A DNA stretch of 22,187 nucleotides from Escherichia coli (GTDB lineage Bacteria; Pseudomonadota; Gammaproteobacteria; Enterobacterales; Enterobacteriaceae): NCBI RefSeq assembly GCF_003334255.1, contig NZ_QOWU01000067.1; one strand, given 5' to 3'. Below, piece by piece: positions 15,787 through 16,798 of the stretch. Made by a program: the position numbers and the translations under genes. Every line of letters starts with the position of its first letter. The first letter of the stretch is position 1. The notes under the pieces are model-generated. The model was not told where the DNA came from, made no database searches, and saw nothing but the letters and a program-made list of their open reading frames with translations.

Positions 15787-16798
15787 CGTTTTCCCTTATA
15801 ATTACAGACGCGCACTAGCTGTGCTGGGTTAGCAATAATCCAACATTTTTATCCTGATTATGTTTATAAAAGCGAACGTTTGCTTAATAACTAACGTAAG
15901 TGGACCAGTTCTTCTGAGTGAACTTAAATGGAGTAGCAACAGTTAATTATAATAACGTTGCCATACAAACGCTATGCTCTTGCATGCTATGTACCTTTAT
16001 ATATTTATCAATCGGGTACGAATCTAATAATAACCCTCATCATTAATGCAACTAATCTTATCTATATATCATGTGATATGTTCTGTAACAAGTAAAATCA
16101 ACATAAAAAATTCAGCAAAATTTAATATTCGTTCAACTAGCCGTCTCACATATGACATTATTAGTCAACTGCATTTGCCACAAAATGGCTATTTCACGGA
16201 ACGCAGTAATTTCTTAGTGGCTATTATCATGCTAATTCTTAGATCCCTAGCGATTATTCCTGCCTGGTTCGTCAGCTTAGGCCATGAGATTGTTACATTC
16301 CTGTTTATCCTGGAGATATGGGGGAACGCAGGCGACGCTTTTTCATCTACATCCGTTGGTAACTATGGCTTTGGTCACTACGACTTAAACCTTCCTCAAT
16401 CACAGCTATTCGCCGGGCGATACGGCAAACAAACTAAGTGAAACATCATCCTGAAAACACCAACATCAACAAGCCTCTCCAGATCGACTTCAGAAGTGAC
16501 CAGTTACAAGCCACAAACCAGGAAACATATTTCATGATGAGAATTATGCTCAGCCTGATGGCGGGTAAACACTGATTTTCACCAAGCTCACTGAGTTAGC
16601 TTGCAAAGCTTCCTTGTTTAGACTCTAAATAAATTATTTATATAACAAATAGTTAAACGAAGATCTTTAGTTTTTGAAGACCACCGCAAGTGTTCGTCTG
16701 GCTTCACATGGCATCTTCCTCTTAGAAAAAGATCGACATATTTTGTGACACGAATTGCAAATCTGGTTTTGTTGTATGGATTGCGTGATTTTTGATCT

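Follow-up and report, generated by a model that had tools for sequence, protein, structure and literature searches.

The NagC operators of the fimB–nanC region of Escherichia coli, and the control of fimB by NagC and NanR, were reportedly worked out by Sohanpal et al. in 2004 and 2007. Binding of NagC and its relief by GlcNAc-6-P have been described in the literature (PMC3173223, PMC3098098, PMC5401889), and fimB is among the operons that depend on two NagC sites and on cooperative binding through looping (PMC5401889). Table 1 of the FITBAR paper, a list of known NagC operators drawn from the literature and from J. Plumbridge, includes 'fimB2', with the sequence CATAATTCTCATCATGAAATATG, and 'fimB1', with the sequence TGCAATTCGTGTCACAAAATATG (PMC3098098). 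Upstream control of fimB has been published as ranging from ~760 to ~470 bp upstream; the SlyA operator O_SA1 is placed at −179 to −168 from the fimB start, and protection by H-NS is reported for the DNA between ~500 bp before and 150 bp after that start (PMC3173223). A NanR operator consisting of GGTATA repeats is described in a published abstract. According to this literature, NagC would bind O_NC2 cooperatively with its partner O_NC1, 211 bp away, and, jointly with NanR on the neighbouring GGTATA-repeat operator, would activate fimB from ~470–760 bp upstream. GlcNAc and sialic acid would relieve binding, leading to lower fimB expression and less type 1 fimbrial switching, and the same NagC and NanR sites would regulate the divergent nanC.

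Two further kinds of described element resemble a 13-codon open reading frame (ORF) that lies in this region. Small E. coli proteins of the YthB type, validated by initiation-site ribosome profiling, have in common with it a short intergenic ATG frame and a Shine-Dalgarno (SD)-like element; unlike them, the ORF is unannotated, its SD is unconserved, its length is variable and its substitutions are neutral. Attenuation leaders such as trpL and hisL are comparable in size to the 13 codons considered here, and repeated codons of one amino acid are found in both. However, the ORF is followed by no terminator or antiterminator, does not stand beside a regulated gene, and its repeated codons are operator bases.

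The ORF had been picked out by a sequence-only reading of a window of 22,187 nucleotides from E. coli (contig NZ_QOWU01000067.1 of assembly GCF_003334255.1), which is the whole stretch of DNA analysed here and in which the fim/nan locus is oriented opposite to K-12. By the annotation of a 100%-identical genome, fimB occupies 15184–15786 on the minus strand and nanC 17239–17955 on the plus strand. The spacer between the two genes (1452 nt, 36.7% G+C) is 100% identical to that of E. coli O39:NM F8704-2 and shows 95–99% identity to most of 5,110 other complete genomes. K-12 MG1655 has no differences from the window over 16440–16610, and the ATG of the ORF is located there at NC_000913.3 4540208, on the minus strand.

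The ORF itself (16534–16575, plus strand; DNA ATGATGAGAATTATGCTCAGCCTGATGGCGGGTAAACACTGA, from ATGATG to CACTGA) encodes MMRIMLSLMAGKH and ends with the TGA at 16573–16575. Its product would be hydrophobic, with a Met-Met start and Met at 4 of the 13 codons. The coordinates of the frame and of the SD-like AGGAAA (16520–16525, plus strand), separated from the ATG by 8 nt, or by 10 nt when counted from the AGGA core, were confirmed in the window sequence and are identical in K-12. No annotated gene covers this position in K-12 MG1655, in the 100%-identical strain or at the matching positions of the PGAP genomes listed, the spacer having been matched in ~5,100 genomes; the peptide string has no occurrence in the searchable literature. 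One genome carries a 'hypothetical protein' beneath the region, which is not the 13-codon ORF but an opposite-strand ORF at an IS5 junction. The earlier description of the region as otherwise devoid of genes holds for the annotation, but the region is dense with documented regulatory DNA sites.

The start region of the ORF is a published NagC site, and the operator was already known. Read in reverse complement, the segment 16526–16548 (CATATTTCATGATGAGAATTATG) equals 'fimB2' exactly and on that identity is assigned to the known NagC operator O_NC2, while 16737–16759 (CATATTTTGTGACACGAATTGCA) is the exact reverse complement of 'fimB1' and corresponds to O_NC1 (PMC3098098). The two operators are 211 bp apart, centre to centre, a spacing compatible with cooperative binding or looping. 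A symmetrised NagC weight matrix, derived solely from 8 NagC sites outside fim and scanned over the ~22,000 positions of the 22-kb window, ranks 16526–16548 first (19.4 bits, z = 4.6) and O_NC1 second (11.5 bits). With the SlyA operator O_SA1 (TTAGCATGATAA on the fimB strand, 16224–16235) as the anchor, the fimB transcription start is placed at ~16056. Measured from it, O_NC2 occupies −470 to −492, and the NanR operator with its GGTATA repeats (GGTATAACAGGTATAAAGGTG, 16800–16820, with approximate, inferred limits) comes to about −744 to −764, positions that agree with the published range (PMC3173223). The H-NS-protected range, mapped on the window, reaches the start of the ORF. Comparison with the published O_NC2 (PMC3098098) reveals the same 23 bp at the same distance from fimB, with the partner operator at the same spacing and the NanR repeats adjacent, and no difference at the operator.

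O_NC2 takes in all eight bases that separate AGGAAA from the ORF, then ATGATG and the remainder of codons 1–5, and with them three of the four Met codons. Its presence, overlooked by the sequence-only reading, accounts for the ATG-rich character and the conservation of the ORF's start. O_NC2 is a 23-bp imperfect palindrome and seeds short ORFs on both strands because, on the plus strand, it carries ATG three times and CAT twice. The CAT triplets give rise to two minus-strand ORFs, one of 12 codons from 16528 (MFPGLWLVTGHF) and one of 29 codons from 16535. Palindromic AT-rich operators that end in CAT...ATG thus generate gene-like short ORFs, of which O_NC2 seeds three over the two strands.

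The combination of an ORF with an SD is not above chance in this DNA. Dinucleotide-preserving shuffles of the 1453-nt spacer (15787–17239), in which ATG-ORFs of 8–60 codons with an AGGA, GGAG or GAGG core 4–10 nt upstream were counted, contain on average 1.30 such ORFs (sd 1.15), and 73% of the shuffled sequences yield one or more. In the real spacer two combinations qualify, the second at 16929, and ATG-ORFs of 10–100 codons number 26. Pairing of AGGAAA with the anti-SD is weak (−4.3 kcal/mol), since just four bases (AGGA) can pair, and 10% of the 20-mers of the spacer match or beat it. The values for the other alleles described below are −0.7 kcal/mol for AAGAAA and +0.2 kcal/mol for the GTTAAA of strain E69.

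Variation was compared over 16 E. coli spacers, a non-random set picked to span the identity range, and over 17 sequences when E69 was added. In the 16 E. coli, variable sites amount to 0 of 23 in O_NC2, 0 of 23 in O_NC1 and 0 of 21 in the NanR repeats, as against 5 of 27 in the ORF outside the operator, 6 of 24 in the extension of the frame to the next stop and 21–28% in the flanking spacer. O_NC2 therefore forms the block, conserved with respect to its flanks, that is looked for in a NagC operator. The extension (16576–16599, plus strand) leads in alleles without the TGA to a TAG at 16597–16599 and gives 21 codons. Within the frame, all changes seen in E. coli are non-synonymous or affect the stop (L6I, S7I, H13P and TGA to TTA or TTG); those in the extension are F15L, S18R, S19P, S21R and TAG to TAT. 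The ORF is 13, 21 or 31 codons long in the 17 sequences, 10 of which have the 21-codon form MMRIMLSLMAGKHLFSPSSLS, with variants thereof in others. In all 17 sequences, E69 included, the frame starts with ATGATG and stays open for 13 codons or more; an open frame of so few codons is not significant, and the start is explained by the operator.

Allele counts across genomes were obtained with 55-nt queries carrying the variant base at the centre, where a mismatch leaves no 28-nt seed and alleles are counted apart, a logic that rests on the search tool's description. AGGAAA was found in 3886 genomes and AAGAAA in 1097, so that the SD core is lost in ~22% of the ~4983 typed. The stop is also polymorphic, most E. 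coli having TTA or TTG at this position: 2043 genomes carry TGA and 2651 carry TTA, which in ~56% yields the 21-codon ORF. The exact 66-nt SD-plus-ORF sequence of the window is present in 2030 genomes, and the 13-codon ORF with an AGGA core is a minority allele. Conservation of the frame and of the ribosome-binding site across strains had been proposed as a check of the ORF. The outcome speaks against it, as about one-fifth of E. coli genomes have lost the SD core and more than half the stop, with a substitution pattern of the non-coding kind. As for the marks of a small-protein gene, the ribosome-binding site is not conserved, AGGA being replaced by AAGA in 1097 of ~4983 genomes and gone in E69, and neither are frame and length, given the 13-, 21- and 31-codon forms and the TGA/TTA split. 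Conservation in these alignments tracks the operator rather than the ORF.

Some strains show larger changes at the locus. Strains 4/4, AVS0343, NR3838 and GPEC1258, whose annotation makes fimB a truncated pseudogene ('missing C-terminus'), all carry AAGAAA; this association, seen in four of four such strains among the spacers retrieved, suggests that AAGAAA and the truncated fimB mark one lineage with an interrupted fimB. In strain 702/18 (NZ_CP074701.1), an IS5-like ISKpn26 is inserted at ~16585, just downstream of O_NC2, and splits this operator from O_NC1, the NanR operator and nanC. The insertion should abolish long-range control of fimB by NagC and NanR in that strain.

A NanC-based scan of species-representative genomes provided, among the matches listed, one usable locus, that of 'E. 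coli' E69 (CP089930.1). The fimE, fimB, nanC and nanM genes of E69 share 90–96% nucleotide identity with the window (fimB, 94.9%; nanC, 96.5%; nanM, 90.2%), and a spacer allele of the E69 type occurs in none of 5,426 complete E. coli genomes. Judged by these sequences, E69 clearly represents a more distant Escherichia lineage, probably a cryptic one. Its central spacer (16200–16731) is ~61–64% identical to the window and contains several indels. Three islands of the spacer are conserved, namely the SlyA site, O_NC2 (21 of 23 positions identical) and a block from O_NC1 to the NanR repeats, which is 98% identical. At the ORF, the SD is replaced by GTTAAA, the position of the TGA reads TCA and the frame runs for 21 codons (MMRIIVNLIADKHSFSPYLRS).

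Comparison of the window with E69 yields a pN/pS of 0.74 for the ORF (Nd 11, Sd 4), with 4, 6 and 5 differences at the first, second and third codon positions, and of 0.5 and 2.3 for the other two frames of the same DNA. The corresponding values are 0.03 for fimB (2/1/28 differences by codon position) and 0.04 for nanC (3/0/22). The counts are small but the contrast with fimB and nanC is large, and the substitution pattern of the ORF looks like that of non-coding DNA. Purifying selection on amino acids, a further mark of a small-protein gene, is not seen at a pN/pS of 0.74, small counts being understood.

An 85-nt island at ~16523–16607 is the sole part of the E69 central spacer that blastn aligns to E. 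coli, and because it alone aligns, some constraint reaches beyond the 23-bp operator. The island starts at the operator and not at the SD, stops shortly after the TAG that closes the 21-codon frame and covers that frame almost exactly. Directly downstream of O_NC2, 16549–16607 contains blocks that persist in E69, CTGAT.GC.G.TAAACACT.ATTTTCACCA and GAGTTAGCTTG.AAA. These blocks are attributed to further candidate sites acting at the DNA level, because the differences in them show no codon periodicity.

Signals for expression of the ORF were sought at the RNA level. The region has no match in Rfam, a scan of 15700–17300 shows no terminator-like site, a consensus promoter scan finds none upstream of the ORF on the plus strand, and the RNA fold at the ORF is unremarkable (z = −1.0). 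A published in-silico prediction gives a plus-strand promoter-like sequence, TCAACA-17-TTTAAT, at 16099–16127 of the window, so that transcription through the ORF on the plus strand is conceivable.

Because the operator is identical to the published one and conserved, and because the ORF, its SD and its stop are not conserved in the manner of a coding sequence, we judge the 13-codon ORF a by-product: it is very probably a non-functional reading frame that happens to begin inside O_NC2. We infer here that it is untranslated; most likely, little or none of the peptide MMRIMLSLMAGKH is produced and it has no function. Three readings had been offered for the ORF. Chance in AT-rich DNA stands, whereas the shuffles, the unconserved SD, stop and length, and the non-coding substitution pattern tell against both a leader peptide and a small protein.

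The weight that remains falls mainly on non-functional background translation, that is, on an ORF translated at low level as noise from pervasive transcription of the AT-rich spacer, with a functionless peptide as the product. Such translation could make use of an ATG preceded, at an acceptable distance, by an AGGA that is weak but usable, and of the predicted same-strand promoter-like sequence ~400 nt upstream, and a published E. coli initiation-profiling study (Stringer et al.) lists very many tiny non-annotated ORFs. It is nonetheless unlikely, given that H-NS is reported over the region to ~500 bp upstream of the fimB start, the ORF start included, that the start region is occupied by NagC as DNA and that the SD is missing in ~22% of genomes.

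A functional small hydrophobic protein of 13–21 residues is very unlikely. The frame is open, over at least 13 codons in 17 of 17 sequences, and its Met-Met start and hydrophobic character are those of many small membrane proteins. Nevertheless, its pN/pS of 0.74 compares with 0.03–0.04 for the neighbouring genes, third-position bias is absent, the product comes in three different lengths, the SD is lost in the AAGAAA alleles and in E69, and the changes within the species are all non-synonymous. Moreover, the ORF is unannotated in K-12, whose annotation has validated small proteins, and YthB is annotated nearby in the identical strain.

Extremely improbable, in our estimation, is a dual role in which O_NC2 doubles as the start of a real micro-ORF, carried on plus-strand RNA that a divergent promoter close to that of fimB would supply, and in which its translation, or transcription through O_NC2, interferes with NagC occupancy and so with the control of fimB and nanC. 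If this were true, the island at 16523–16607, which matches the 21-codon frame in extent, would reflect a dual constraint, on DNA and on coding. A leader peptide or upstream ORF regulating nanC or fimB by attenuation or translational coupling has next to no probability: the ORF shares the orientation of nanC, and its richness in Met (4 of 13 codons) is superficially like a run of regulatory codons, but the nanC ATG lies 664 nt downstream with O_NC1 and the NanR operator in between, fimB is on the opposite strand, the terminator or antiterminator looked for directly downstream of a leader beside its regulated operon is not found and no terminator-like hairpin follows the ORF, the RNA fold is ordinary, the nanC transcript reportedly starts downstream of 16575, three of the four Met codons belong to the operator and the neighbouring genes are unrelated to methionine.

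Our preferred reading of the ORF as a by-product of O_NC2 makes this a chiefly negative result, and the ORF should stay off lists of small-protein candidates. It also bears on the design of mutants, since a knockout of the start codon would destroy O_NC2 and cause a regulatory phenotype at fimB and nanC that could be misread as a function of the peptide.

Two other ORFs of the spacer deserve mention. The second ORF-plus-SD combination belongs to an ORF at 16923–16967 (plus strand), which gives MRSTDTLFYDSG from the ATG at 16929, with an AGGA core 8 nt upstream, and MKMRSTDTLFYDSG when read from the ATG at 16923. From 16929 it has exactly 12 codons in 17 of 17 sequences, the E69 version (MRSTNNPFYDTG) included, despite changes at several residues. 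It is located downstream of the NanR repeats, may be within the 5′ leader of nanC, and could be either a nanC upstream ORF or a product of chance. The longer ORF at 16046–16441 (131 codons, plus strand) runs over the promoter region of fimB, on the strand opposite to that gene. Among E. coli strains it measures between 73 and 135 codons (88 in K-12), and in E69 the frame is destroyed; it is without annotation in K-12 and in the 100%-identical strain, and is almost certainly spurious.

Searches with NanC also brought up NZ_JAHZMO010000172.1, a 462-bp contig of 0.7x coverage in an assembly of Terrisporobacter petrolearius, whose NanC is 99% identical to that of E. coli; the assembly has almost certainly been contaminated with E. 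coli DNA. On the far side of nanM, in the region ~19209–20240, the annotation of the identical strain gives a truncated sialate O-acetylesterase (nanS) pseudogene, then the small protein gene ythB at ~20045–20143 on the minus strand, ~3.5 kb from the ORF, and after ythB a frameshifted fragment of a phosphorothioate-dependent restriction endonuclease. The nanS pseudogene and the frameshifted endonuclease fragment indicate that the right end of the window is decayed or rearranged.
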